A stretch of 64,000 nt of DNA, from assembly GCA_965221695.1 (NCBI GenBank), contig OZ244905.1, positions 96,001 through 160,000 on the forward strand, written 5' to 3'. The notes beneath the pieces are model-generated. The model worked only from the letters and a program-made list of their open reading frames with translations. It made no database searches and had not been told where the DNA came from. Numbering within the stretch: position 1 is the first letter of the stretch; each line of letters begins with the position of its first letter. The position numbers were made by a program, and so were the translations under genes. Below are positions 9,132 through 23,993 of the stretch, piece by piece. The stretch is from Gammaproteobacteria bacterium. Its GTDB lineage: Bacteria; Pseudomonadota; Gammaproteobacteria; Eutrophobiales; Eutrophobiaceae.

Positions 9132-9684
9132 ACTGAATCCGTGTTACGCATTGCAGGGCAGTGATGGACAGACGCTGGTTTTGCAGACGGATCGCCTGGC
9201 GCTGCAGGCGGTTAACAATGTTCGCAAGCTGCGCTTGCAAGCCCGGCCGGACACGGAGATAAACCCGGCGCCGCTTGAAGCGTTACTGGGCATGGCATTA
9301 CCGCAAAACCCGCGGGAAAAGGTCAACCATGAGCCGGCAGCCTACTGGCTGGCCCCCAATGACTGGCTGCTGCTCGACCCGGCGCCGGCCGGCGGCAATA
9401 TCAGCAATGTATTGCGGGAAGCAGCCGGTGGCGCCACGTGCGTTGTCACCGATGTGAGTGATGCCTGGAGCATCATAGAGATTTCCGGCGCGGATGCCGC
9501 GGCAAAATTGGCGGAAGGCTGCTCGGTAGACCTCGATGACGATGCATTCCCGGTTGGCCGGTATGCTTTGACCCGGTTGCAGCGCCTATCGGTAATCATA
9601 CACAGACTGGACGACAGGTCAAAATTCCACCTCCTGGTTGACCGCAACCTGGCGCGTTTTCTCTGGGATTGGTTACGCATGTGA
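9124..9684 (+). CDS. soxG: Sarcosine oxidase family, gamma subunit
   Basis: WLAPNDWL, VTDVSD, GCSVDL, VDRN.ARFLWDWL; ATG at 9124 overlaps the soxA end. Confidence 0.85.
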   Translation: MSELNPCYALQGSDGQTLVLQTDRLALQAVNNVRKLRLQARPDTEINPAPLEALLGMALPQNPREKVNHEPAAYWLAPNDWLLLDPAPAGGNISNVLREAAGGATCVVTDVSDAWSIIEISGADAAAKLAEGCSVDLDDDAFPVGRYALTRLQRLSVIIHRLDDRSKFHLLVDRNLARFLWDWLRM

Positions 9685-11960
9685 ACCGGGACAACGCACC
9701 GGTTTTCAAGGACCTGGTCCTGGTTGGTGGAGGCCACGCCCATGTCACGGTATTGAAAAAGTTTGCAATGAAACCGGTGCCCGGGGTGCGCATTACCCTG
9801 GTTTGCCGGGACTTGCAGGCGCCTTACTCCGGCATGTTGCCGGGATATATAGCCGGGCATTACCTATTTGACGACGCGCATATCGACCTGGTTCCGCTGT
9901 GCCGATTTGCCCGCGCCCGGTTTTTCCACGATGAAGTCATCGGTCTGGATACGGATAACAGGAAGCTGATCTGCCGCAGCCGCCCGCACCTGGGTTATGA
10001 CATTTTGTCGATTAACGTCGGCTCAGCGCCCGATATCGCCGCAGTCCCCGGCGCTGACGGCAAGGTTATTCCCGTAAAACCCATTGATGGTTTCGTCGGT
10101 AACTGGCGCAAACTGTGTACGCGGATGTTGCAACGTCAAAATGGCGCGCGCATCGGTATCGTCGGCGCCGGGGCGGGCGGCGTCGAACTGGCGCTTGCAG
10201 TTCAATACCGGCTGAAAGCATTGCTGACCGGGAAATGGCCGGATAATACAAGTCCTGAATTTCACTTGTTTACCGATGCCGGCGAGGTCCTTACAACACA
10301 TAACCGCAATGTGCGCGCCAAGTTCCGGCGCGTGCTTAACGAGCGGAACATTCACGTACATACAGGGCACGAGGTGACCGAAGTCAGGGCCGGTGTGCTG
10401 CAATGTGCAAACGGCGCTACTTTTCAACTGGATGAGATCCTGTGGGTGACCAGGGCCCGCGCCCAGGACTGGCCGGGGCAGGCCGGCTTGGATGTTGATG
10501 AACAGGGCTTTATCAAAGTCAACAATACTCTCGAGTCCGTCTCGCATCCCGGCATCTTTGCGGCCGGCGATATCGCGCATATGATTAACCATCCCCGGCC
10601 CAAGTCCGGTGTATTTGCCGTGCGCCAGGGAGCGCCGCTGTCACTGAATCTCCGCAACAGGTTGTTAAATCGCTCCCTCAAACCCTATTTTCCCCAGAGA
10701 GAGTTTCTGAGCCTGATTTCCACGGGTGATCAGTATGCCATCGCCTCACGCTCCTGGTGGGCGCTGGAAGGGCGCTGGGTGTGGCGCTGGAAGGACTGGA
10801 TTGATCGCCGCTTCATGTGCAAGTACAACCGGCTTCCGGAAATGAAGGAGCCGGCACGGCGGGATATTCCCCGCGGCGTAGCCGATAAGGATGCGATCAG
10901 GGAGATATCCGCCATTGCGATGCGCTGTGGCGGGTGTGGCGCCAAGGTGGGCGCGACAGTGCTTGAAAATGCATTGGCTGGCCTTGAACCGATCTCCCGG
11001 GACGATGTGCTTATCGGGTTGCACGAACCTGATGACGCCGCCGTGGCGAGTGTGCCGGCAGGCAAGGTAATAGTGCATACGGTCGATGCCTTCCGTTCAT
11101 TTATCGATGATCCGTACATCTTCGGACAAGTGGCGGCCAATCATGCGCTGAGCGATTTATTTGCGATGGGCGCACAGCCGCAAACGGCGCTGGCAATCGT
11201 GACCGTTCCCTACGCGGACGAAAAGAAGCTTGAAGAGCTGCTGTCGCACCTGCTGCAAGGCGCTCTCAAGGCGCTGAACGGGGCTGGCGCGGCGCTGGTA
11301 GGCGGGCATACCTCCGAAGGCGAGGAACTGTCCCTGGGATTCGCCGTGAACGGGTTGGTTGATCGGGAGCAGATCCTGCGCAAACGCGGCCTGCGTGCCG
11401 GCGACAGAATCGTGCTGACCAAGCCCATTGGCACCGGGACACTGTTTGCCGCCGATATGCGGCACAAGGCTAAAGGCGCTTGGATTACGGCCGCGCTGGA
11501 TTGTATGCTGCAATCAAACCGGGAAGCTGCCAAGCGCCTGTTTGCCCATGGCGCCGCGGCCTGTACGGACGTCACCGGCTTCGGCCTGTTGGGACACCTG
11601 GTGGAAATGATCAAGCCATCTGGTGTCGATGTCGAGATTGACCTGGGCGCGATTCCGTGTCTTGATGGCGCAGAAGAGACGATTGCAGCCGGCATTTTCA
11701 GTTCCCTGCAGCCCCAGAACCTGCGACTGCGCCGGGCGATACGTGACGCTGAGAACGTATCAAAAGATACTCGCTACCCGTTGATATTTGACCCGCAAAC
11801 ATCCGGCGGACTGCTTGCCGGCGTTCCCGCAGAACAGGCCGAAGCCTGTGTTACCGCGCTGCGTGAATTGGGCTATGCCCAAACTGCAATTATCGGCAGG
11901 GTATTGCCTGAGAGTAATAGGCTGGAACCGGTTAGGCTTTTAAAAGCACAGTCTGAGTAA
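9681..11960 (+). CDS. selD: Selenide, water dikinase (SelD/SenC) fused to an N-terminal FAD-dependent pyridine nucleotide-disulfide oxidoreductase domain
   Basis: N-terminal LVLVGGGHAH, YSGMLPG, GAGAGGVE, FAAGD. C-terminal MRCGGCGAKVG, DDAA, HTVD, GGHT, TDVTGFGLLGHL, DPQTSGGLL. GTG at 9681 overlaps the soxG stop. Confidence 0.92.
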   Translation: MNRDNAPVFKDLVLVGGGHAHVTVLKKFAMKPVPGVRITLVCRDLQAPYSGMLPGYIAGHYLFDDAHIDLVPLCRFARARFFHDEVIGLDTDNRKLICRSRPHLGYDILSINVGSAPDIAAVPGADGKVIPVKPIDGFVGNWRKLCTRMLQRQNGARIGIVGAGAGGVELALAVQYRLKALLTGKWPDNTSPEFHLFTDAGEVLTTHNRNVRAKFRRVLNERNIHVHTGHEVTEVRAGVLQCANGATFQLDEILWVTRARAQDWPGQAGLDVDEQGFIKVNNTLESVSHPGIFAAGDIAHMINHPRPKSGVFAVRQGAPLSLNLRNRLLNRSLKPYFPQREFLSLISTGDQYAIASRSWWALEGRWVWRWKDWIDRRFMCKYNRLPEMKEPARRDIPRGVADKDAIREISAIAMRCGGCGAKVGATVLENALAGLEPISRDDVLIGLHEPDDAAVASVPAGKVIVHTVDAFRSFIDDPYIFGQVAANHALSDLFAMGAQPQTALAIVTVPYADEKKLEELLSHLLQGALKALNGAGAALVGGHTSEGEELSLGFAVNGLVDREQILRKRGLRAGDRIVLTKPIGTGTLFAADMRHKAKGAWITAALDCMLQSNREAAKRLFAHGAAACTDVTGFGLLGHLVEMIKPSGVDVEIDLGAIPCLDGAEETIAAGIFSSLQPQNLRLRRAIRDAENVSKDTRYPLIFDPQTSGGLLAGVPAEQAEACVTALRELGYAQTAIIGRVLPESNRLEPVRLLKAQSE

Positions 11961-11979
11961 AGGATAGTACATTTTAGGG

Positions 11980-12201
11980 CTAAGCTACATCACGCATAGG
12001 TCTTACCTGCGGCGTCGGCAGGGTACGCCCCTCCGATTGGAAATGTTGCAAAACATCATCAACCACTTGGCATAACTCGCCATACAGCGACATTGGATTA
12101 TCTCCATGAATTCCGGTGATCAAATCGGGGCATTTTCCAATGTAGACTTGGTCTTCTTCGCTCCATTCAACCCATTTATGATAACGATCGCTTATTTTCA
12201 T
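11980..12201 (-). CDS. hicB: HicB-like antitoxin
   Basis: WSEED..YIG.CPDL..G.HG pattern and C-terminal G..LP.P; directly downstream of the hicA-like gene. Confidence 0.75.
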   Translation of the reverse strand: MKISDRYHKWVEWSEEDQVYIGKCPDLITGIHGDNPMSLYGELCQVVDDVLQHFQSEGRTLPTPQVRPMRDVA

Positions 12202-12401
12202 TCTTTGATTCTCTCAATAGCCTTTTCTACTTGTTGCAACTGGTAAGGTTTGGCGTCGTCTCCTGGTTTGCCACTGATTGTTACCGCGCCAGGAAAGCTC
12301 TGGTGGGTGAACTTTCTATGAGCTCCTTTCCCTCCGCCTCTGATCTCTTCAAATCTTGCATCTTTGAGCATTTTTATCAGGTTTCGTATCTTTTTTGGCA
12401 C
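12198..12401 (-). CDS. hicA: HicA-like mRNA interferase toxin
   Basis: 67 aa basic protein with GKGAHRKFTH and VTISGKPGDDAKPYQ; likely GTG start at 12401; 4-bp overlap with hicB. Confidence 0.8.
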   Translation of the reverse strand: MPKKIRNLIKMLKDARFEEIRGGGKGAHRKFTHQSFPGAVTISGKPGDDAKPYQLQQVEKAIERIKE

Positions 12402-12469
12402 AACAAGTCTTGAAAGTTGACGAGGTTGAGATATCAAATATTATACAACGGTTGTGGCTCGTCAGGAAG

Positions 12470-13420
12470 TCATAGATTATCCAGTAGGGCCTGCCACAAC
12501 TTGCTTTCGCGTTCCGGGGTGAACAAGTGTTTGCGTTTGCTTCCGTGCTCGCGCAGATGTTGCAGGAATTCTTGCTCGTTTTCCGCCCGCTGTAACAACG
12601 CGCATAATGTTTCGGTGTCTGTTACCGGATAATAACCGGGGTAATCATCGCCGAGCAGGCCGGTATTGCCGTCGATCGCGGAGGCAATCACGGGAACGCC
12701 TGCGACCAGGGCTTCGGAAATGACATTCGCGCCGCCTTCCATGGTTGAACTGTGAACCAGTGCATGGGTCTTCAGAAACTGCTCTCTGACCTGCCAGGCG
12801 CTGACCTCGCCGCGCCAATGATAACGGGGATTGATTGCCATCTCCGCGCGCCCCCGTGCAGCCCATTCAGCATTTTGCGCGTTGCCAAGATGGATTACCC
12901 GCAGGCGCGACCGTTGTGCAAGATTGCGCGCGGCGTAAGCGGTTCTGAACGGGTCTTTCTCTGCGCGTAAATGGCCGATAACGCAGACGTCGAACGTGCG
13001 TACTGAGGGACGACGCGGGCGCGCCGGCGGCGTTGCCGATTGATGGATAACATGCAGTTTGTCGTGGAATGAAGCCGGGAGCGCCCGATGTGCAAGGTCA
13101 TGCAGGCAGACCAGTGCATCGGCGGTCTGCATCGAACCCAGGGTTTCCTCCGCGTGACTGTATTGGAAGCGATAAATATCCGTTCCGGTCAGCGCAACCA
13201 CCAGCGGGTGGGTCGGATAGCGCGTACGAAAGCGCGCGATCGAAGTGGCGCTGCGCCAGGCATGCAATGCCACCATCATATCACCAGGCATCCCATCCCA
13301 GTCGGATTGTACTGATACCCTGTGGCCAATACCTCGCAGCAGTCGCGCCCAACGCGTTGCGGTCACGCGATTGCCCGTCTTCGATTGTTTTGTTGCGGGC
13401 GTGATCAGGATAATTTTCAT
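12470..13420 (-). CDS. senB: Selenosugar synthase SenB-type glycosyltransferase
   Basis: GNRVTA.RW, ALHAWRS, LTGTDIY, GHLR.EKDP, EGGANVISEA; sits between selD and an EgtB-like gene. Alternative start 13453. Confidence 0.85.
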   Translation of the reverse strand: MKIILITPATKQSKTGNRVTATRWARLLRGIGHRVSVQSDWDGMPGDMMVALHAWRSATSIARFRTRYPTHPLVVALTGTDIYRFQYSHAEETLGSMQTADALVCLHDLAHRALPASFHDKLHVIHQSATPPARPRRPSVRTFDVCVIGHLRAEKDPFRTAYAARNLAQRSRLRVIHLGNAQNAEWAARGRAEMAINPRYHWRGEVSAWQVREQFLKTHALVHSSTMEGGANVISEALVAGVPVIASAIDGNTGLLGDDYPGYYPVTDTETLCALLQRAENEQEFLQHLREHGSKRKHLFTPERESKLWQALLDNL

Positions 13421-13549
13421 CCGCTGCGCACTGTCTGATGGCATTATTGTCAACAGGTTATCATAACTCCTCGGCAGTAACTCTCTATCCTGCGATGAAG
13501 CGAATGCGGTGAAGCGAATTGGTGACTGGTTCGGCTTGAGCTACAATAA

Positions 13550-14860
13550 ATGACGATGCAACAGCTAAGCGGCAAATATTTAAAGGAAATCATGCTGGAT
13601 GCCCATCAGCGTACGCTGGAGTTGATCGCTGGTCTTGATGACGCGCAGTTGATGGGGCCAAAGTTGCCCATCGTCAATCCGTTGCGCTGGGAAATAGGGC
13701 ATGTTGCCTGGTTTCATGAAAAGTTTATCTTACGCGATTTGTATGATTGCCCGCCGTTGCTGGCAAACGGTGATTCCCTCTATGATTCCATTGCCATCGA
13801 TCACGATCAGCGCTGGGATTTACCGTTGTTGAGCATGCGGGAGACGCTGGACTATATCCGGAACGTCCTGGACCACTGCCTGGCGCGGTTGCCGGATGGC
13901 GCGGCAGACCCGGAACAGAGTTATATCTACCGGTTTTCCACCTACCACGAGGACATGCATACCGAGGCCTATTGCTGGTCGCGCCAGACCCTGGCCTACC
14001 CGCAGCCCGCTTTTGCCGTTGCAGGCAAACCGGAGGATGCGGGCGCCGGGGCCTGGTCTGGGGATGTGGCGATCCCAGGCGGGGTGTTTTCTCCGGGCGC
14101 GGAGGAAGCGACGCCGTTTGTGTTTGATAACGAGAAATGGGCGCACGAGATAACCCTGGAACCGTTTCAGATAGCAAAAGCGCCGGTGACCAATGCCGAG
14201 TTCACGGAATTTGTCGCTGCCGGGGGCTACCTGTGCCGGGAGTTCTGGAGTGATGCAGGCTGGTCCTGGCGCAAGCAAGCCGACGCCCGGCATCCCGTAT
14301 ACTGGCAGAACGGCGGCAAGGATGCGTGGCGGTTGAGGTGGTTTGATGACATCGGGGAACTGCAGCCGCATCAGCCTGTTATCCATGTCAACTGGCATGA
14401 GGCCAATGCGTACTGCCGTTGGGCAGGCAGGCGTTTGCCGACGGAAGCGGAGTGGGAAGCGGCGGCGTTGGGCGAACCTGCCGATGACCACGGCAGGCTT
14501 GCTTTGAAGAAACGCAGTTACCCGTGGGGGGAACAACCTCCTGGTGAACTTCATGCCAATCTTGATGGCCGAGCGCTGGGCTGTGTCGATGTCGCATCCC
14601 TGCCGGCGGGGGACAGCGCGCTCGGCTGCCGGCAGATGCTAGGCAACGTATGGGAATGGACCGCATCCACGTTTGCGCCGTTCCCGGGCTTTTCGCCGGA
14701 TGCCTACAAAGAATATTCCGAACCGCTGTTTTATCACACGAAAGTATTGAAGGGTGGCGCCTGGGCTACCCGGAGCCGGATGATAACAGGCCGCTACCGT
14801 AATTTTTTCACGCCTGACCGGCGCGATGTGCTCGCGGGTTTCAGAACTTGTGCGCTTTAA
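13550..14860 (+). CDS. senA: Selenoneine synthase SenA (EgtB-like; DinB_2 plus FGE-sulfatase domains)
   Basis: WEIGHVAWF and HEDMHTE metal ligands, FDNEKWAH, RLPTEAEWE, GNVWEW, YRNFF.P.R; adjacent to senB and selD. Confidence 0.85.
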   Translation: MTMQQLSGKYLKEIMLDAHQRTLELIAGLDDAQLMGPKLPIVNPLRWEIGHVAWFHEKFILRDLYDCPPLLANGDSLYDSIAIDHDQRWDLPLLSMRETLDYIRNVLDHCLARLPDGAADPEQSYIYRFSTYHEDMHTEAYCWSRQTLAYPQPAFAVAGKPEDAGAGAWSGDVAIPGGVFSPGAEEATPFVFDNEKWAHEITLEPFQIAKAPVTNAEFTEFVAAGGYLCREFWSDAGWSWRKQADARHPVYWQNGGKDAWRLRWFDDIGELQPHQPVIHVNWHEANAYCRWAGRRLPTEAEWEAAALGEPADDHGRLALKKRSYPWGEQPPGELHANLDGRALGCVDVASLPAGDSALGCRQMLGNVWEWTASTFAPFPGFSPDAYKEYSEPLFYHTKVLKGGAWATRSRMITGRYRNFFTPDRRDVLAGFRTCAL

Positions 14861-14999: not shown

Positions 15000-16469
15000 A
15001 TGCGTGGTAAAAAACAACAGTTGAGACGCCTGCCATCCGTGGATCGCGTGCTGCGGGAAGCGTCTGATTTGGTCGAGCGTTGGGGACATGAGCGGGTGGC
15101 TGCTGCGATACGCAATACGCTAGAGCAGGTGCGCGCAAACATGGAAGAATTCGCTGCTCTCGACAAGTCAGCGCTATTGGAGCAAGTCGTTTCCATACTG
15201 GCGTGCAGGCTGGAACAGGAGTCCGCGGGCAGCCTGGTCAGTGTGTTCAACCTGACCGGCACCGTCCTGCATACCAACCTGGGCCGCGCGGTACTGCCGC
15301 GCGCGGCGCTGGACAACGCGCTGGCCTTAGCCCAGACACCGGTAAACCTGGAATTTGACCTGGAGAGCGGCACGCGCGGAGATCGCGATGAGCATATCGA
15401 ACCACTGATCTGCGAACTCTGCGGAGTGGAAGCGGCAACCGTGGTGAACAACAATGCCGCCGCAGTATTACTGGTATTGAATACTTTGGCAAAAGGCCGG
15501 GAGGTTCCGGTCTCACGCGGCGAACTGGTCGAGATTGGCGGTTCTTTTCGCATCCCGGATATCATGCAGAGTTCAGGCTGTGCGCTGGTTGAGGTCGGTA
15601 CGACCAACCGTACCCATTTGCAGGACTACCACAATGCGATCAATGACAGGACGGCGTTGTTGTTAAAAGTTCATGCCAGTAACTATCAGATCCGCGGGTT
15701 TACCCATAGTGTTCCCGAGAAAGAGTTGGCTCAACTGGCCCACCAGCGCGGGTTGCCGCTGGTTGTCGACCTGGGTAGCGGTAATCTGATCGACTTTGCC
15801 GCATTCAACCTGCCTGATGAGCCTACGGTCGCGCAAGCGCTGAAGAGTGGCGCCGATATTGTAACCTTCAGTGGAGACAAGCTGTTGGGCGGTCCCCAAT
15901 GCGGCATAATCGCCGGCGAACACACATTGATTGCCAGGATGAAGAACAACCCGCTGAAACGCGCGTTACGGGTTGACAAGATAACCCTGGCTGTCCTGTC
16001 AGAGGTGTTGAGACTCTATCAAAACCCCGCGCGGCTTGCACAAGATCTGCCGGCTCTGGCCGCGCTGACACGTCCACCGGATGCTATCCGTGCCCAGGCT
16101 GAGCGGATTGCCCCTGCGCTCGCGGTCGCGCTGGCGCCGCATTATCAAGTCGCGGTCTGCGAATGTCACAGCCAGGTCGGCAGCGGCGCGCTGCCGATTG
16201 ATACACTGGCAAGTTACGGGTTAAGGATCAGCGCGGTGGAAGAGTCGGATGAAGCAATCAGACTGCTGGCGGCATCCATGCGCCGGCTGCCGACACCGGT
16301 CATAGGTCGGATTAACCAAGGCGCTTATTTCCTGGATCTGCGCTGCCTGGATCGGGAGGAAGATTTTATTTCCCAGTTACGGAGTACTGGCCTCGCGGAT
16401 CATTTTCCGGAACATGCGCACGCCGATGATCTTGAGCATCAGCTTTTGGAAAAGGGACGGGGGCGTTGA
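15000..16469 (+). CDS. selA: L-seryl-tRNA(Sec) selenium transferase
   Basis: NLTGTVLHTNLGRA, VNNNAAA, SRGELVEIGGSFR.PD, EVGTTNRT, SGDKLLGGPQ (PLP Lys), RALRVDK. Confidence 0.95.
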   Translation: MRGKKQQLRRLPSVDRVLREASDLVERWGHERVAAAIRNTLEQVRANMEEFAALDKSALLEQVVSILACRLEQESAGSLVSVFNLTGTVLHTNLGRAVLPRAALDNALALAQTPVNLEFDLESGTRGDRDEHIEPLICELCGVEAATVVNNNAAAVLLVLNTLAKGREVPVSRGELVEIGGSFRIPDIMQSSGCALVEVGTTNRTHLQDYHNAINDRTALLLKVHASNYQIRGFTHSVPEKELAQLAHQRGLPLVVDLGSGNLIDFAAFNLPDEPTVAQALKSGADIVTFSGDKLLGGPQCGIIAGEHTLIARMKNNPLKRALRVDKITLAVLSEVLRLYQNPARLAQDLPALAALTRPPDAIRAQAERIAPALAVALAPHYQVAVCECHSQVGSGALPIDTLASYGLRISAVEESDEAIRLLAASMRRLPTPVIGRINQGAYFLDLRCLDREEDFISQLRSTGLADHFPEHAHADDLEHQLLEKGRGR

Positions 16470-17576
16470 GTTGGCTGCGGAGACATATCGGTTGATGCCG
16501 AGTTGCTCGCACAGGTCTTCGGACATGACCTGCAGCGGCCCATCCGACGGGATGCCGGTCGCATCGGCGATGCGCACCATGCGCTGAAAGTTCGATACCA
16601 CCCCCGCTGCGTCGATCATCGCCGCCGAACCCATCTTATCCGACAAGGCCTGGCGCGCGCGGTCCAGCTCAAAGCCGTCGACGCCCATGCAGGCATTCGT
16701 GAACTGCAGCAGTTCTTGGGAATCCGGTATACCCTTGATCTCGGTGCAGGCGGGATCAGTCAGGCCATCGAAGTCGATAGACCCGCCTGTCAGCTTGACG
16801 CTCTCACGGAGCATCACCACATGTGAGGAAGTTCAGTAAAAACAGCCGTTCAGCGCGGATACCCGGGCGGCCACAATCTCGGTCTGGGGACGGGTCAGGG
16901 TTCCCTGCGGCGGCCGGGTCATATTCCAGACCTCATGCACATCCAGGTAATGCGCGTCGGACTGGTCAAGCAGGTTGCGGACTTCGTCAGGAACCAGGCT
17001 CATGGCTCGGATCACGTAACCGCGCATGTCGCCTTCCCACAGGTCCGCATCCGGCCCGCTATCGACCCGCGTCGGCAGTATCGGCACCCAGGCGCCGTCG
17101 TAGGATACATTGGCCGGACGGTAGCGGCTGGGTTCGCCCGGTTGCGGTTCCGGCAGTTCATTCAAAGGCAGGCCCAGGCAACGGCAGAACTCGTCTATGG
17201 AGAACACCGAGACCAGGGTACCGATGATCTCAATATATTTTTCTTCACTGAGACCCTGTTGCATGATCCCGTCGAACCAGGATTTCGTCAGACGCGCCGA
17301 GTCGGTGGTGACCCGGTGGATCACTTCGATCACGACATCCGGAAGATCGGTGACCGTGTCATGGGCGCCGTCAACTGTGTAAGGCGACAACGATTCCTTG
17401 CGCCGGCTGCACAGTTTGCACTGAGGCGCCTGGCGTATTTCCGTGGCAATGTCAACACGCTCAGCGCCGGTGAACCAGGTTCCCGGCGCGGCAAGCCGTT
17501 GCCAGTAGCGGTTATGGCAAGCGGCAAAGTCTGCGCGTACCGGCCAGGGGGCGTTGCTGTAGTCGATCATACTCAT
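16377..17576 (-). CDS. AhpD/alkylhydroperoxidase-like selenoprotein, 399 aa, Sec at residue 248 (C-F-Y-U)
   Basis: The 247-aa ORF ends ...E.VAARVSALNGCFY at TGA 16835-16833 and continues in frame (TSSH) into the 16820-16377 ORF. This gives a CxxU..H AhpD-type motif, with a SECIS-like hairpin after the UGA and selA/selD nearby. Confidence 0.85.
16796..16816 (-). promoter_or_regulatory. Candidate bacterial SECIS hairpin
   Basis: mRNA UGAUGCUC-CGUGA-GAGCGUCA: 8-bp stem with one G-U pair and a 5-nt loop with G at position 2; 24 nt separate the in-frame UGA from the loop. Confidence 0.7.
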
Positions 17577-17626: not shown

Positions 17627-20011
17627 TCACTGCCCGTATGACCAGGTGAGCTGGGCGCCGATGGTGCGGGGCTGAACAGTATACTGCCTGATCGTGTCCG
17701 GTCCCGCAGAGCTGTCTATATCGATAATCGCACGCTTATCGGTTACGTTGTTTACGAAGATACGCAACCCCAGGTTGTCATGGCGGAAGTCGGCGCTGAG
17801 GTTTAACAGGAAATAATCGCCGATATCGATAAAACCGGGGAAGTTCTCATTGAAGAAAGTATCCGATTCTCCGACGTAAGAAAAATTGCCGCGCAGTGAC
17901 GCTTCGACATTGTTCAACATAGTGACCGGAAAGGTATACTCCATCATGCCGGAAAACGCCCATTCAGGCACTTTCGGTACGTTATCGCCGTCTCTTCCCA
18001 GAGGCGGGTTAAAGCCCGGCGCGGACAACCCGGGATCGATAGCCTGATCTTTGGTCAACTCTGCGTCGAGCCAGGCGGCGCCCAGATGCAGCGCAAATTG
18101 CTCTGTCGGCCGGGCGGACAATTCTACTTCCACCCCGTCAACTTCGGCCTCTGCTGCGTTCGAGATATACTCCACCGCGCCGGTAGGTTCGACTCCGGGG
18201 ACCTGTATATCATCCCAGAACATTTTGAAGTAGGTTGCATTCAGGATCACCCGATCATCGTGCCAGGCGGTTTTGGCGCCGAATTCAACACTAAGGACCT
18301 CATCGGACGTAAATGAGGAGGGAATGACGATCCCGAAGGCCGATGCGGTCGATGCATCGTTGATGCCGCCCTGCCTGAAACCGGTTGCCCCGCGCACATA
18401 GTACATCTGGTTGTCGTTCGGGGAGAATGACAGACTCGCATCCCAGGTGATCTCATCTTCTTTGGAGGTGTCATCAACAGAGACTATAGGCGTAGTCTGG
18501 ATCGGACCGCCGAACAGAGGCGGGATGGTAAACGCAACACTGCCCTGGAATGCCTGCAAGGTCTGTTCCAGGTTATCCTGTTTTGAATCGAAATAGCGCA
18601 CTCCGCCACCCAGACTGAATTGTTCAGTGATGTCAACATCAACATGGCCGAATAGCGCGAAGAATTCAAAATCGATATCCTGGCTGCGAGCGAACGCCAG
18701 GGAAGCGGCGGCTAATTCCGGATCAGTGATACATTCATCCCGGCTGAAGCAGACAGGAATGCCGGTAGCGATGTCTCCGGCCAGGATGTCCAACTCGGAG
18801 TAGGTCTCATCATCTTCATAGAAAAAACCGCCGACGAAATTGACAGGACCATCCAGATCGGAACTGAAGCGTATCTCTGCGTTGAGCACATCACGGTTTT
18901 GGAACTGGTGAATGCCGTAAGAGCCGAGCGGCGGGCCGAAAGCCGGGGGGAAACCGAATGACATGGCAGTGGGCGAAGTATCCTCGAGAAACTCAACATC
19001 ACGCTCAAATTTGGATACGGAAGCGAGAATCGATCCAAAACCCAGGTCGTAATCGATGGTCAGGCCATACATGTCTATATCATCGCCGTAAGGCTCTTGG
19101 TGGGCATTTGAAGTTTTTAGCTCGCCGTAACGACCGTCGAACGCAGGGATAAAATAGGGGAACGGCACGACGATGACCTGGGTCGGAGTGAGCAGACCAC
19201 TGGCTACCGGCGCATAGTGCTGGACGCCGTCAACATTCGTTTCCTGCATCTGGTAAAACGCGTCGATGGTCAGGTCTTCGTTCGGCGTCCAGCGCCCCAT
19301 GATACGGCCGCCGGTGATTTCTGAATCATTCACATTCTTTAGCTCCGTAACCCCGTTCAACCCGGCATACTGGTCTATGTAACCGCCTTGTTCCTTTTGC
19401 CAGCCCACCAGGCGCAAGGCCAGGGTGTCAGCTACCAGCGGCACATTGATGGCGGTGTTCACCGAGTAACCCTCGTCGCCATGTTCAACAGTTTCAATCC
19501 CTGCAGAGACAGACATTTCGAACCCGGAAGCATCCGGTTTGTTGGTGATAATCCTTACCACGCCGCTCATGGAACTGGCGCCGAACAAGGCGCCTTGGGG
19601 TCCTTTTAACACCTCAATGCGGGCAATATCATAGGCGCCTATATCGGGAGTGCGACCACCGCCGTCCTGGAAATTACCGCCGGTAATAGGCGATTCATCA
19701 AAATAGACGCCAACAGTGCTGTCGCCTGGCGAAGAAATACCCCGAATAATTAACTGGGTATCGCCGGCGCCCTGAGTGGCGTACTGCAGTGAAGGCTCCA
19801 GTCGAGAGAAATCCTCCAGCGAACGCAGGTTATGTTTTTCAATAGTGTCCCCACCGATGGCGCTGATTCCTCCAGCTATGTCTTGCGCCGATACTTCCCC
19901 CCGCTTGGTTGCGGTTACGATGATTTCCTCGATGGTCGTCTGGGCTGATATATCAGACAGATAGAGCGCACACAGAACCGCGCTGGCGAGATATTTGTTG
20001 ATGTTTTTCAT
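17627..20011 (-). CDS. TonB-dependent receptor
   Basis: Signal peptide, IEEIIVTATKR TonB box, RIEVLKGPQGALFG plug motif, C-terminal PRTIG beta-strand. Confidence 0.92.
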   Translation of the reverse strand: MKNINKYLASAVLCALYLSDISAQTTIEEIIVTATKRGEVSAQDIAGGISAIGGDTIEKHNLRSLEDFSRLEPSLQYATQGAGDTQLIIRGISSPGDSTVGVYFDESPITGGNFQDGGGRTPDIGAYDIARIEVLKGPQGALFGASSMSGVVRIITNKPDASGFEMSVSAGIETVEHGDEGYSVNTAINVPLVADTLALRLVGWQKEQGGYIDQYAGLNGVTELKNVNDSEITGGRIMGRWTPNEDLTIDAFYQMQETNVDGVQHYAPVASGLLTPTQVIVVPFPYFIPAFDGRYGELKTSNAHQEPYGDDIDMYGLTIDYDLGFGSILASVSKFERDVEFLEDTSPTAMSFGFPPAFGPPLGSYGIHQFQNRDVLNAEIRFSSDLDGPVNFVGGFFYEDDETYSELDILAGDIATGIPVCFSRDECITDPELAAASLAFARSQDIDFEFFALFGHVDVDITEQFSLGGGVRYFDSKQDNLEQTLQAFQGSVAFTIPPLFGGPIQTTPIVSVDDTSKEDEITWDASLSFSPNDNQMYYVRGATGFRQGGINDASTASAFGIVIPSSFTSDEVLSVEFGAKTAWHDDRVILNATYFKMFWDDIQVPGVEPTGAVEYISNAAEAEVDGVEVELSARPTEQFALHLGAAWLDAELTKDQAIDPGLSAPGFNPPLGRDGDNVPKVPEWAFSGMMEYTFPVTMLNNVEASLRGNFSYVGESDTFFNENFPGFIDIGDYFLLNLSADFRHDNLGLRIFVNNVTDKRAIIDIDSSAGPDTIRQYTVQPRTIGAQLTWSYGQ

Positions 20012-20203: not shown

Positions 20204-21805
20204 ATGAATCTCGACAAACCCGGGACGACAACCATCGACGAGCTGCAGGACAGCCATAATCCGCAAATGACGCCTGCAGATCTGCGCGAGTTTATCGATC
20301 TGCTGCAGGAAGAAGATGAAATTATTGTTGTAAAAGAAGCCGTTAATCCACGTGATTTTGAGTTGTCCGCGATTGTGCAACATAGCGAGAACGGGCCGAA
20401 CAAAGCGGTATTATTTGAACATGTCAAGGGTTTTGACATGCCGGTGGTGGCGAACCTGTACGGAACGATTCACAGGACCGCGATGGCTCTGGGAATCACC
20501 CCCACTGATGAGCAGATCAGAAGATACTATGACGATCCCCGCGGCAGTCCCGGGGCGTTGGCCGGCATGTCGGGCCGCAAAATGAATGGGTTTTCAATGG
20601 AGCCGCGTTCACGCGCGGAACTTATCCTGATAAAAGAACTGTTGATGGATGCCGACCGGCGCGCCTACAACAAGGAAATGCCCTATGTCATGACCTCTTC
20701 GGCTTCCTGTCAGGAGGTGGTAATCAAGAAGAATATCGATGTGTTGGGATTGTTGCCGGTAGTCTGGCACCTTAAACAGGATGCCGGCCCCTACATCACA
20801 CCTGGCGGATTGGTGCAAAAAGATCCCGACAACGGTCTGCTGAATATTGGCGTGCGGCGGCACATGGTCAGTCATGAGCGCTATGCGCCAAATCAGATCG
20901 GCGTCCAAATCGGCACGCAGACGCCAGGCGGCAAGATCATCCAGAAATATCATGACCGTGGCGAGCCCTGCCCGATGGCGATCTGCCTGGGACCGGATCC
21001 AGCCACCCAGATTTTATCGACTTATTCATCGCCCCACTATTGGATGGAGCCTCCGTATAGTGAGTTCGACATGACCGGGGTCATTCGCAATAAACCGTTG
21101 GAACTGGTGAAGTGCAAGACCATCGACCTGGAAGTACCTGCCAATACGGAAATCGTGATCGAAGGTTTGTCACCACCGCCGCCGGATAACAAGATTGATG
21201 AAGGTCCCATGATGGAGTTTACCGATTATTCGGGCACAGTGGTCGAGGCAATTCCTTATATGGAGGTTACTGCTATCACTCACAGGAACAACCCCATATT
21301 TCATACCTGTATGTCCGGTAATTCCGAAGAACACCGGGTGGGTTGCATCTGGTCTTTCTTCGGCTATGAACAGATGGGGTTGGAATTGATCAAGAAGCAG
21401 TTTCCCCATGTCGTGGATATCGGTATTTTTGCCGGTTCCCACGGTTTTCACGCGGTCGTTTCAATGAAGAAGACCTACGAGGGCGAGGATCGGCAAGTGC
21501 TCCAGTATCTGCTGGCTACCCAGTACTTCAAGTTTGTTACCGTAGTGGACGATGATATCGATCCCCATAACAGCGAACAGGTGGAATGGGCAAAAGCCAC
21601 CCGCGCCGGACGCCGGCCCGAGGATTACATCATCTCACCGCAGATGCCCACCTGGGAGATGGACCCGGAGATCGACCAGCACTGGCGGGTCACCAAGCTG
21701 GGAATCCTGGCCACCCGCGACATTAATGAGAACTATACTCAACCGGCGCCGGACTTGGCAATGATGGAAAAAATGCGCGCGGTATTTGAAAAGTATGTGG
21801 CTTAG
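20204..21805 (+). CDS. UbiD family prFMN-dependent (de)carboxylase
   Basis: DLREFIDLL, DAGPYIT, LNIG..R, VKCKTIDLEVPA..EIVIEG, EGPMME, VVDDDID. Confidence 0.88.
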   Translation: MNLDKPGTTTIDELQDSHNPQMTPADLREFIDLLQEEDEIIVVKEAVNPRDFELSAIVQHSENGPNKAVLFEHVKGFDMPVVANLYGTIHRTAMALGITPTDEQIRRYYDDPRGSPGALAGMSGRKMNGFSMEPRSRAELILIKELLMDADRRAYNKEMPYVMTSSASCQEVVIKKNIDVLGLLPVVWHLKQDAGPYITPGGLVQKDPDNGLLNIGVRRHMVSHERYAPNQIGVQIGTQTPGGKIIQKYHDRGEPCPMAICLGPDPATQILSTYSSPHYWMEPPYSEFDMTGVIRNKPLELVKCKTIDLEVPANTEIVIEGLSPPPPDNKIDEGPMMEFTDYSGTVVEAIPYMEVTAITHRNNPIFHTCMSGNSEEHRVGCIWSFFGYEQMGLELIKKQFPHVVDIGIFAGSHGFHAVVSMKKTYEGEDRQVLQYLLATQYFKFVTVVDDDIDPHNSEQVEWAKATRAGRRPEDYIISPQMPTWEMDPEIDQHWRVTKLGILATRDINENYTQPAPDLAMMEKMRAVFEKYVA

Positions 21806-21827: not shown

Positions 21828-23174
21828 TCAGAAATCAGGGATCTTGTCGACACCCGGCACTATCGCCACCTGTTCAAAGTCTTCGCCGAAAGGCCGGGTG
21901 GCATCGATGCCCATGACGGAATAGCTGCCGTCGTCTGGCGCTGAAGGATCGAGTTGCCAGAGGGTCATACGCGGCAGGATCATTACGTCTTTCTGCGCTT
22001 GCGCCCGGGTACAGATCGCCCACATAACCTTGTCCATGTCATGGATATCGATATCTTCGTCCACAACCACGGCAAGTTTGCTGCCTTGGGATCCCAGCAG
22101 GGTTGCCAGGACTTGCCTGGCCTCGTTCCTGGCATATTGTTTCATCGCGACGATGCACATCAGCCCGACCCCCCCGGCGCCGTGAAAATGCGTCCGTTTG
22201 ACACCGGCAAACTTGCGTTTTAGCATGGCGTAGCAGGAGGCTTCCATCGGGATCATTTTCAATACGTGGTTGTCGGTTACCGGCACGCCGCTCATTCCGG
22301 CAAGCAGGATAGGATCGTGGCGGTGGGTGATCGCGCTAACCTCCAGAACGGGTTTGGGCGACCCTTGAGTGTAGTAGCCGGTGTATTCTCCAAACGGGCC
22401 TTCATGTTCCCGGATACCAGGCAGCATGCTGCCCTCAATAATAATTTCCGCGCTAGCGGGCACTTCCAGGTCTACGGTCTGACATTTGACCACCTCCAGC
22501 GGTTCGTCCAGCAATGCGCCGGCCAGGGTCAGCTCGTCAACGCCATAGCCCGCTTCCCACTGGGTCGCAATCAAGGCGCTGGGAGCAACTCCCAGAGCAA
22601 TAGCGAGTTCCAGCGGTTCATCCAGCGCTTCCGCTTTCCGGTAATGTACTCCCAGGTGATGAGGCGGTGGCGACAGCACGCCCAGGCGTCGTTTGTCCAG
22701 CACCTGGTGGCGGTATATGGAGGCATTTTTGCCGCCATCTTCGGGATCTTTGCTGATAGCGACACCCAAGGTGATGAACGGGCCGCCGTCCAGTTCACAA
22801 TAGGTTGGGACGGGAAAAGCGGTTAAATCCGCCTCGTCTCCCAGGTGTATCACCTCGTTGCAGGGTCCTTGTTCGATTAGCCGATGTTCCTTCAGGTTGT
22901 CGATGGCATCGAGATATTTGTTATTGGCCTCCAGTTCGGTCGTCTCCAGCGCCTCCAGCATCAAGCGCCGGTTTGCGAACAGTCCGCCCGCAACCCGCAT
23001 CTTATGACCTTTAATGTTCTCGAATAACAGGGCTGGTCCTTCATCGCCCATATCCGAGGCTTTGCGCAAGTAGGCTGCCAACTCATATTCCAGCGCCACC
23101 TCATTGCTGATCCGAACCAGTTTGCCGCTTGCTTCCAGATGCTCAAGGAAGCCGCGCAGGTCTTTGAAGGCCAT
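21828..23174 (-). CDS. UbiD family prFMN-dependent (de)carboxylase
   Basis: DLRGFL, DGGPFIT, NASIYR, EGPFGEYTGY, VVDEDID, GIDAT. Confidence 0.92.
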   Translation of the reverse strand: MAFKDLRGFLEHLEASGKLVRISNEVALEYELAAYLRKASDMGDEGPALLFENIKGHKMRVAGGLFANRRLMLEALETTELEANNKYLDAIDNLKEHRLIEQGPCNEVIHLGDEADLTAFPVPTYCELDGGPFITLGVAISKDPEDGGKNASIYRHQVLDKRRLGVLSPPPHHLGVHYRKAEALDEPLELAIALGVAPSALIATQWEAGYGVDELTLAGALLDEPLEVVKCQTVDLEVPASAEIIIEGSMLPGIREHEGPFGEYTGYYTQGSPKPVLEVSAITHRHDPILLAGMSGVPVTDNHVLKMIPMEASCYAMLKRKFAGVKRTHFHGAGGVGLMCIVAMKQYARNEARQVLATLLGSQGSKLAVVVDEDIDIHDMDKVMWAICTRAQAQKDVMILPRMTLWQLDPSAPDDGSYSVMGIDATRPFGEDFEQVAIVPGVDKIPDF

Positions 23175-23189
23175 TATTCTTCCTCTTAG

Positions 23190-23993
23190 TCAGGCCTGCG
23201 GGACATCTTCCACCTGTACCCGAAAACCGGAACGAACATGGGGAAAATAATCCCAGACCGCAAGGTGCTGGGTGCAGCGGTTATCCCAGAAGGCCACGGA
23301 ATGGGGTTCCCAGCGGAACCGGACATGGAAGTAGGGATCTTCGATCTGTTGGAACAGAAATTCAAGTATATGCCGGCCCTCGCGCTCGTCCAGTTCGTTG
23401 ATATGGCTGGTGAAACCGCGGTTGACATAAATGACTTTACGTCCGGATACGGGATGCGCGCGGATTAGCGGGTGCACCGCTTTAGGGTATTTGCCATGGG
23501 GATCAAACCGGCCAAAAGCAATCATGCCGTCATGAGTGGCGGTCAAGCCCTCCAGATAGCTCTTCATCCCGTCGGACAGGGCGTCGTAGGCCGCGTACAT
23601 GCTGGAAAAAACTGTATCGCCGCCCATGGGGGGCAGTGTGTGCAGGTAAAGAATGCTGCCCATGGGCGGAACCTCGGCGCAGGACATATCGGTATGCCAT
23701 TCTTCGCCGGATACATGTTTTGAATTTTCATCCGCATGCAGCTTGCGCACTTCCGGATGATCCGGTAATCCTTTCAAGGCATGTTTCTGCAATGGACCGA
23801 AATACAGTCCGACCCGCTTCAACGAAGCCGGGTCCAGGGCCTGGTCGCGGAAGAAAATCACCAGGTGCGCGGTCAGCGCCTTGTGCAGATCTTCCAATTG
23901 CGCGTCATTCAGCGGTTGCCCCAGGTTGATGCCAGATACGACCGCCCCGATCCGGGGAGTCAATGGCGCCACTTGAATCGTTTGGTATGTCAT
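23190..23993 (-). CDS. TauD/TfdA family Fe(II)/2-oxoglutarate dioxygenase
   Basis: WHTD, GGDT.F, HP..R.HP.SGRK, WDNRCTQH. Confidence 0.92.
   Translation of the reverse strand: MTYQTIQVAPLTPRIGAVVSGINLGQPLNDAQLEDLHKALTAHLVIFFRDQALDPASLKRVGLYFGPLQKHALKGLPDHPEVRKLHADENSKHVSGEEWHTDMSCAEVPPMGSILYLHTLPPMGGDTVFSSMYAAYDALSDGMKSYLEGLTATHDGMIAFGRFDPHGKYPKAVHPLIRAHPVSGRKVIYVNRGFTSHINELDEREGRHILEFLFQQIEDPYFHVRFRWEPHSVAFWDNRCTQHLAVWDYFPHVRSGFRVQVEDVPQA

Follow-up and report, generated by a model that had tools for sequence, protein, structure and literature searches.

Organization of the locus

The stretch of DNA analysed here, hereafter the window, comprises 64,000 nucleotides of a Gammaproteobacteria bacterium of the family Eutrophobiaceae (order Eutrophobiales; GenBank assembly GCA_965221695.1, contig OZ244905.1, positions 96,001 to 160,000), and carries on its minus strand an in-frame TGA that separates two open reading frames (ORFs). 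In all probability these frames constitute one gene of the NCBIfam family NF041238, in which the UGA would be read as selenocysteine (Sec) through a selenocysteine insertion sequence (SECIS) hairpin and the Sec machinery of the genome, the product being an AhpD-type tandem redox protein (Table 1).

The ORF list of the window contained, at this place, a frame of 247 amino acids (16833..17576) ending with the TGA and, in the same frame, another of 147 amino acids (16377..16820), which latter begins at a GTG four codons past the TGA. The minus-strand codons across the site—AAC GGC TGT TTT TAC TGA ACT TCC TCA CAT GTG—are exactly those given in the original prediction, an earlier reading of this DNA from its letters and ORFs, whose claim that the two ORFs fuse into 399 amino acids was likewise borne out: the frame is one, its sole internal stop is the TGA, and the 247 residues, the Sec, the segment TSSH, and the 147 residues add up to 399. 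Translation of the whole gene with TGA as Sec gave ...ALNGCFYUTSSHVVMLRES..., with U248 as the single recoded codon. TGA is otherwise an ordinary stop in the window, where it terminates 16 of the 33 long ORFs and is the commonest of the normal stops; the recoding is therefore local and the genetic code unchanged. A global reassignment of TGA was ruled out by that same count.

Table 1. Coordinates of the selenoprotein gene, its parts, and its neighbours in the window
Feature	Position	Strand	Remarks
AhpD-related selenoprotein gene, complete, 399 residues	16377..17576	-	ATG start 17576-17574, TAA stop 16379-16377
In-frame TGA (U248), second redox position of C245-F-Y-U248	16833..16835	-	
SECIS-type hairpin	16796..16816	-	UGAUGCUC-CGUGA-GAGCGUCA; 8-bp stem 16816-16809 with 16803-16796, loop 16808-16804
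Catalytic segment E233...C245-F-Y247-U248-T-S-S-H252, predicted AhpD-type helix-turn-helix redox motif	16821..16880	-	
Predicted N-terminal domain, residues 1-160, diverged second AhpD/CMD-like fold with C53-K-L-C56	17097..17576	-	
Predicted C-terminal AhpD/CMD-like domain, about residues 185-372	16461..17024	-	Profile and structural matches
Predicted C-terminal basic/hydrophobic helix, residues 375-397	16386..16454	-	Predicted model
selA (L-seryl-tRNA(Sec) selenium transferase)	15000..16469	+	TIGR00474, 583.7 bits (cut-off 267.9)
TonB-dependent receptor gene, directly upstream, 50-nt gap	17627..20011	-	
Pyridine-nucleotide-disulfide oxidoreductase/SelD fusion, SelD as C-terminal half	9669..11960	+	TIGR03169, 494.8 bits; TIGR00476, 303.9 bits
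SenB	12470-13453	-	TIGR04348, 412 bits
SenA	13550-14860	+	NF041186, 497.6 bits

Conservation of the Sec site

If the UGA is translated, homologues should align through it with either TGA or a Cys codon at that position, as the original prediction had proposed, and such was the pattern found. Among 126 genomes of the same taxonomic order 25 carry the family, and all 52 matches in these possess exactly one in-frame TGA, with no other stop breaking the frame; in a class-wide sample of 399 other genomes a single one carries the family, in four copies, each likewise with one TGA. A scan at one genome per species gave 507 relatives, of which the best 80 were examined and 79 loci kept; these extended the comparison to Gammaproteobacteria, Dehalococcoidia/Chloroflexota, Myxococcota, Thermoanaerobaculia, Spirochaetaceae, and others. 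Over all loci the codon of the Sec site is TGA in 134 of 136 instances and Cys in the other 2, and the motif CFYUT occurs at 132 of the 136, which total includes genomes fetched twice via two tools, 99 of the Sec sites being distinct at the DNA level. To judge from these codons, the family is almost exclusively Sec-containing.

The best 120 relatives in a large protein collection present the other face of this pattern: 116 of them are pieces of 226-288 residues that cover 57-62% of the query, which coverage indicates that those proteins were called only up to the TGA. The splitting of the gene by standard gene callers, as anticipated in the original prediction, is thus evident in the relatives as well as in the two ORFs listed here. 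The other four (P0018, P0019, P0021, P0025) have Cys instead of Sec, the site reading C-Y-Y-C-T-S-G-H, and extend over the full length, with 376-382 residues. In an alignment of 48 sequences E233, C245, U248, and H252 are invariant—these being the residues of the AhpD signature E...CxxC...H that had been recognized at the outset—and T249 is nearly so. T249 and H252 come after the TGA but before the earliest codon at which translation could restart, so that their conservation is explained by read-through only. A single gene with Sec at the second redox position, followed by a SECIS, is the arrangement that the sequences support.

The genome contains, in addition, a second paralogue (G000:C1:1799123-1800181; L017 1396-2595, minus), which is 43% identical to the first and has its own in-frame TGA together with a hairpin bearing compensatory changes; that gene has an AraC-type regulator gene on its upstream side and, downstream, a 374-residue ORF without a Pfam match. 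Tandem pairs of family members were also observed in metagenome-assembled genomes of Dehalococcoidia/Chloroflexota (L086, L088, L092-L096, L098-L101, L103, L105, L107-L109, L111, L113, L117), in which the loop reads CGUGA in one copy and GGUCG in the second, the N-terminal CxxC being absent from both.

The SECIS hairpin

The bacterial SECIS has been described as a stem-loop just behind the UGA whose apical loop is small and includes a G (PMC1088965), and the hairpin of Table 1 corresponds to that description in its 8-bp stem and its small G-containing loop, CGUGA. The hairpin, with the 24 nt from the UGA to the loop that had been announced for it, is included in the minimum-free-energy fold of the region, and the comparison with homologues supports it through covariation. 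Within the order, 99.0% of the stem cells pair in 25 distinct sequences; over the 99 distinct sites of all phyla 89.3% do so, versus 28-51% when the partner strand is slid by 1-3 columns. Both sides change in six of the eight stem pairs (56 cells); at one pair, for example, 32 sequences show A-U and 29 show C-G, and the covariation score over the 99 sites was reached by none of 500 shuffles. In the loop, G29 is invariant at those sites and U30 nearly so, and GGUCG takes the place of CGUGA in one set of the Dehalococcoidia copies.

Codon choice points in the same direction. At U+8 the Leu codon CTC is used by 89 of 93 genes, versus 28.9% of the other Leu codons of the same genes, and the codon that follows is CGT in 71 of the 93 (71 of 73 Arg codons) versus 13.6% elsewhere. 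The two codons at the junction of stem and loop are thus frozen at synonymous positions, a strong constraint at the level of the RNA.

Sec decoding machinery and selenium neighbourhood

The genome encodes what Sec decoding requires, namely selA, selB, selC (tRNA-Sec), and selD. The selB gene lies 1.4 Mb away (296.1 bits, cut-off 242.25) with the tRNA-Sec directly 3' of it (77.4 bits; identified by ARAGORN as tRNA-SeC, anticodon tca), so that the lack of selB or selC, which the original prediction had named as grounds for abandoning its claim, does not apply. The statement that selA and selD are neighbours proved right in substance: selA adjoins the selenoprotein gene, with which it is convergent, the 3' ends overlapping by 93 nt; SelD is present as the C-terminal half of a fusion (9669-11960). 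No selD match other than that fusion exceeded the cut-off in the genome. The selA family model stops at residue 459 of 489, and the overlapping selA tail may be an unconstrained extension.

The fusion, SenB, and SenA form a selenoneine-type cluster (window 9669-14860) that adjoins selA; and, the fusion being the only selD, one SelD would serve the synthesis of both Sec and selenoneine. As to other clients of the Sec machinery, the search for formate dehydrogenase alpha gave 17 weak matches in the genome, all under the cut-off and all free of an internal TGA or other stop; the two CFYUT genes may be among the few clients of that machinery. A Cys-type gene for a peroxidase-related AhpD-like protein is located elsewhere in the genome (C1:1749181-1749717; TIGR01926, 91.8 bits).

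Family assignment

The read-through protein matched NF041238 (AhpD_rel_CFYUT, alkylhydroperoxidase-related (seleno)protein) with 472.2 bits and an E of 1.1e-141 at a cut-off of 175, residues 13-365 aligning with positions 1-356 of the 357 of the model, and the CFYUT named in the title of that family is present in ...NGCFYUTSSH..., with the U248 being the TGA. The Pfam CMD family (PF02627) was matched by the joined protein over residues 221-258 only, with 28.3 bits against a gathering score of 23; the upstream half alone remained under that cut-off, at 15.8 bits, and the downstream 147-residue ORF alone matched no Pfam family.

The caution in the original prediction that the family might already be catalogued was well placed. 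Zhang, Fomenko, and Gladyshev described in 2005, within the selenoproteome of the Sargasso Sea, a "hypothetical protein 1" comprising four sequences with a conserved CXXU motif and a drawn SECIS (PMC1088965), and gave no functional evidence for it; and a 2026 review lists this family under NF041238 (PMC13188914). AhpD-like CxxU selenoproteins are, moreover, cited among the most abundant selenoproteins in ocean metagenomes (PMC2398784). The gene is accordingly an ordinary member of NF041238, that is, of "hypothetical protein 1", a family already known and curated: the match is full-length, the Sec of CFYUT occupies the same position, the SECIS hairpin lies just downstream, and nothing of substance differs. 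The details of the present lineage are the selA and selenoneine-cluster setting and the C-terminal helix of residues 375-397, which is outside the model. What is added here is modest: a sestrin-like two-domain model, a quantified dominance of Sec, the covariation of the SECIS, and the local setting in a "selenium island".

Predicted domain structure and redox site

A model of the full protein, built from the 48-sequence alignment, had a predicted local distance difference test (pLDDT) of 95.4 and a predicted template-modelling score of 0.94. The best reading of that model is a single chain in which two AhpD/CMD-type helical domains stand in tandem, arranged as in sestrin. When the model was compared by VIA-align with 48,161 representatives, the top match was the human Sestrin2 (5cuf_A; Z 16.0, root-mean-square deviation 3.6 Å, 242 residues aligned over model positions 1-343, 11% identity), after which came the debrominase Bmp8 (6ohi_A; Z 12.7, 178 residues), 2pfx_B (12.0), 3lvy_A (11.8), 2gmy_A (10.8), and the Mycobacterium tuberculosis AhpD (1gu9_A; 7.7).

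For the C-terminal domain, a sequence profile of positions 162-342 matched the Deinococcus radiodurans AhpD (6k40_A) at an E of 1e-15 and also 2oyo, 2pfx, 3c1l, and 2prr. This domain is predicted to hold an AhpD-type redox site composed of E233, C245-x-Y247-U248, and H252. The redox site of YP_296737.1 (2prr) is given as Glu74, Cys86, Tyr88, Cys89, and His93 (PMC4674687), and the spacing of the corresponding residues of the present protein is identical.

The N-terminal 160 residues modelled alone reached a pLDDT of 95.8, and their best eight structural matches were all of the AhpD/CMD family or Sestrin2 (Z 8.0-4.5), ahead of unrelated helical proteins; the Z was 8.0 for 2pfx and 6.8 for 1gu9. 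The CxxC of this domain occurs in most members, not in all: C56 is nearly invariant, and the motif is absent from the Dehalococcoidia copies. The helix of residues 375-397, predicted with confidence, is kept in the gammaproteobacterial Sec forms, whereas the four Cys forms lack it; it could serve for association with the membrane or for interaction.

By analogy with the chemistry of AhpD-type enzymes we propose that the U248 selenolate would replace the second Cys in the C-terminal redox site and attack an oxidized substrate, which might be a hydroperoxide or else a protein or small-molecule disulfide or sulfenate; C245 would then resolve the intermediate to an internal selenenylsulfide, and a cellular thiol reductant would regenerate the site. 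The N-terminal C53xxC56 might act as an electron relay or have a structural role.

Comparison with related proteins

Close to the C-terminal domain stand the "peroxidase-related" AhpD-like proteins (TIGR01926; 2prr, 2pfx, 2oyo, 3c1l; and the D. radiodurans AhpD 6k40), with which it shares the fold and the E / C-x-Y-C(U) / H site, and the "AhpD-like 1/2" CxxU selenoproteins of marine metagenomes, reported to have Sec in place of the second Cys (PMC2398784). Those proteins are of a single domain—some 190 residues in the peroxidase-related group—and are assembled from separate chains, whereas the NF041238 protein adds an N-terminal AhpD-like domain within the same chain.

The M. tuberculosis AhpD (1gu9/1knc; TIGR00777) resembles the present protein in the CMD/AhpD fold and in the CxxC...H redox motif, which motif, nevertheless, is located elsewhere in the fold (PMC4674687). 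The two are not orthologous, since the score against TIGR00777 was 15.2 bits with a cut-off of 191.95 and the profile E to 1gu9 was 0.21; the likeness is one of fold and motif. By these scores, the protein is AhpD-related but not AhpD proper.

The human Sestrin2 (5cuf, 5dj4), whose structure is reported to have a twofold pseudo-symmetry and to carry in one of its halves an AhpD-like oxidoreductase motif (PMC4674687), has two AhpD-like subdomains in one chain and is the best whole-chain structural match. Its redox-active half, however, is N-terminal and has one Cys, whereas in the NF041238 protein that half is C-terminal and has a Cys and the Sec; with the low identity quoted above, and with no sestrin family among the Pfam matches of the read-through protein at E <= 1, the two share an architecture and not a membership. 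Bmp8, finally, belongs to the CMD family, agrees with the fold of the C-terminal domain, and is proposed to operate through the oxidation of two cysteines to a disulfide (PMC5577590), but is a single-domain Cys enzyme whose link to NF041238 includes nothing specific beyond the superfamily.

Gene neighbours

Flanking ORFs were clustered at 77 loci, 3 of the 79 fetched having been omitted, which also carry CFYUT. A TonB-dependent receptor was found at 17 of the 77 loci, selA at 13, a UbiD-type decarboxylase at 12, and SenB and SenA at 9 each; the CoA-transferase, the enoyl-CoA hydratase, and the riboflavin genes, present at 15-18 of the loci, are specific to the Dehalococcoidia, whereas the receptor, selA, UbiD, and senA/senB belong to the gammaproteobacterial group, the nine loci linked to senA/senB being all of close relatives. 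An operon-based call of function was rejected because none of the neighbours recurs from one phylum to another and the larger neighbour clusters are lineage-specific.

In the window itself the selenoprotein gene is immediately preceded, on its own strand, by the gene for a TonB-dependent receptor. Since a promoter-like site (20104-20076, minus strand) precedes the receptor gene, and no terminator-like site was found between that gene and the selenoprotein gene, a co-transcription of the two is plausible. Beyond the receptor gene lie two back-to-back UbiD-family decarboxylase genes (20204-21805, plus; 21828-23174, minus) followed by a gene for a TauD-family dioxygenase (23190-23993, minus).

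Discussion

The single in-frame TGA retained across phyla, the covarying hairpin behind it, the full-length match to a family defined by CFYUT, and the presence of the Sec genes converge on one selenoprotein gene at this locus, and we hold that interpretation with high confidence. A number of results, for their part, weigh against one or another of its components. As to the recoding, the support for the insertion of Sec comes from sequence comparison. The folding energy of the region, of -17.4 kcal/mol, is unremarkable (z -0.13; 83 of 200 shuffles fold equally well or better), so that the standing of the hairpin beyond chance rests on the comparison with homologues; and Rfam at the gathering score matched no family in the whole window, which outcome, such hairpins being short, says nothing against a bacterial SECIS. 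As to the AhpD-type character, the score against the canonical TIGR00777 was quoted above, and that against peroxid_rel (TIGR01926) was 36.3 bits with a cut-off of 81.8; both lie far under their cut-offs, and the AhpD-like chemistry is therefore deduced from motif and fold, not from orthology. As to the tandem, Foldseek found nothing in the PDB at E <= 0.001, the best AhpD-like match being 2prr_A (E 0.015, probability 1.00), followed in rank by 6k40 and then by Sestrin2 chains; the Z of at most 8.0 for the N-terminal domain falls within the range where a common helical arrangement is possible; and hhalign joined the two halves weakly (E 0.004, probability 8%), though it sets C53-K-L-C56 on C245-F-Y-U248. 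Finally, among the 77 loci no neighbour common to several phyla names a substrate or a reductant.

Of the explanations that differ from ours, the one that fares best accepts the selenoprotein and assigns to it a task other than the reduction of peroxides or disulfides. In that account the family would be a sestrin-like two-domain selenoenzyme, which marine and, it seems, frequently host-associated bacteria retain nearly always with Sec, in as many as four copies a genome and, in Dehalococcoidia, as tandem pairs; it would need selenol chemistry for a specific reaction, instead of being a generic antioxidant: either a reductive dehalogenation of halogenated aromatics that is selenol-dependent and Bmp8-like, to be compared with the Sec-containing deiodinases, or else a reduction of oxidized selenium metabolites such as selenoneine, with the N-terminal CxxC serving as a built-in electron relay. 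The second-best place of Bmp8 among the structural matches and the two-cysteine mechanism proposed for that enzyme (PMC5577590) agree with such a function, as do the TonB receptor and the UbiD-type decarboxylases of aromatic acids at the frequencies given above, the P450, the CoA-transferase, and the enoyl-CoA hydratase among the neighbours, together with the adjacency of the gene to senA and senB in this genus. The Z of Bmp8, however, is within 1 of those of the ordinary peroxidase-related structures 2pfx and 3lvy and is thus not specific; the sen genes accompany the selenoprotein gene in only the 9 of 77 loci already mentioned, all from close relatives; and neither a halogenase nor a dehalogenase partner was seen. 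We therefore consider this specific function improbable, in either of its forms.

A good deal weaker is the explanation whereby the TGA is a true stop and the frames of 247 and 147 residues are independent genes. The results of ordinary ORF calling, which yields two ORFs, are what that explanation would expect, as is the predominance in public protein sets of an upstream piece, and TGA is the commonest normal stop of the window. Yet a real stop would sever the catalytic motif between its two redox residues and leave a downstream ORF that alone has no Pfam match, whereas the four Cys homologues are single proteins of full length, all 52 matches of the order remain free of any other stop in frame, the conserved T249 and H252 precede any restart codon, the hairpin covaries, and the Sec machinery is present. 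In view of these observations we give the two-gene arrangement very little credence. The least probable explanation of all, to which we assign next to no weight, is a pseudogene or, where a Cys codon once stood, an error of the assembly, since, even if TGA is one base from TGC or TGT and the genome is an assembly of the uncultured type, TGA recurs at the great majority of the sites, in dozens of independent assemblies and several phyla, with a strong conservation of the protein elsewhere in the gene and of the hairpin.

For the gene of this bacterium, then, the reading that we retain is that of an NF041238 selenoprotein. The knowledge of selenoprotein decoding itself is unchanged by this result. 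For the family, though, the consequence is that, since gene callers cut at the Sec codon and the best relatives are nearly all stumps, its members are systematically misrepresented in metagenome protein sets; and the near-exclusive use of Sec, the sestrin-like two-domain fold of the model, and the recurrent neighbours for uptake and aromatic catabolism provide concrete starting points for the function of these proteins.

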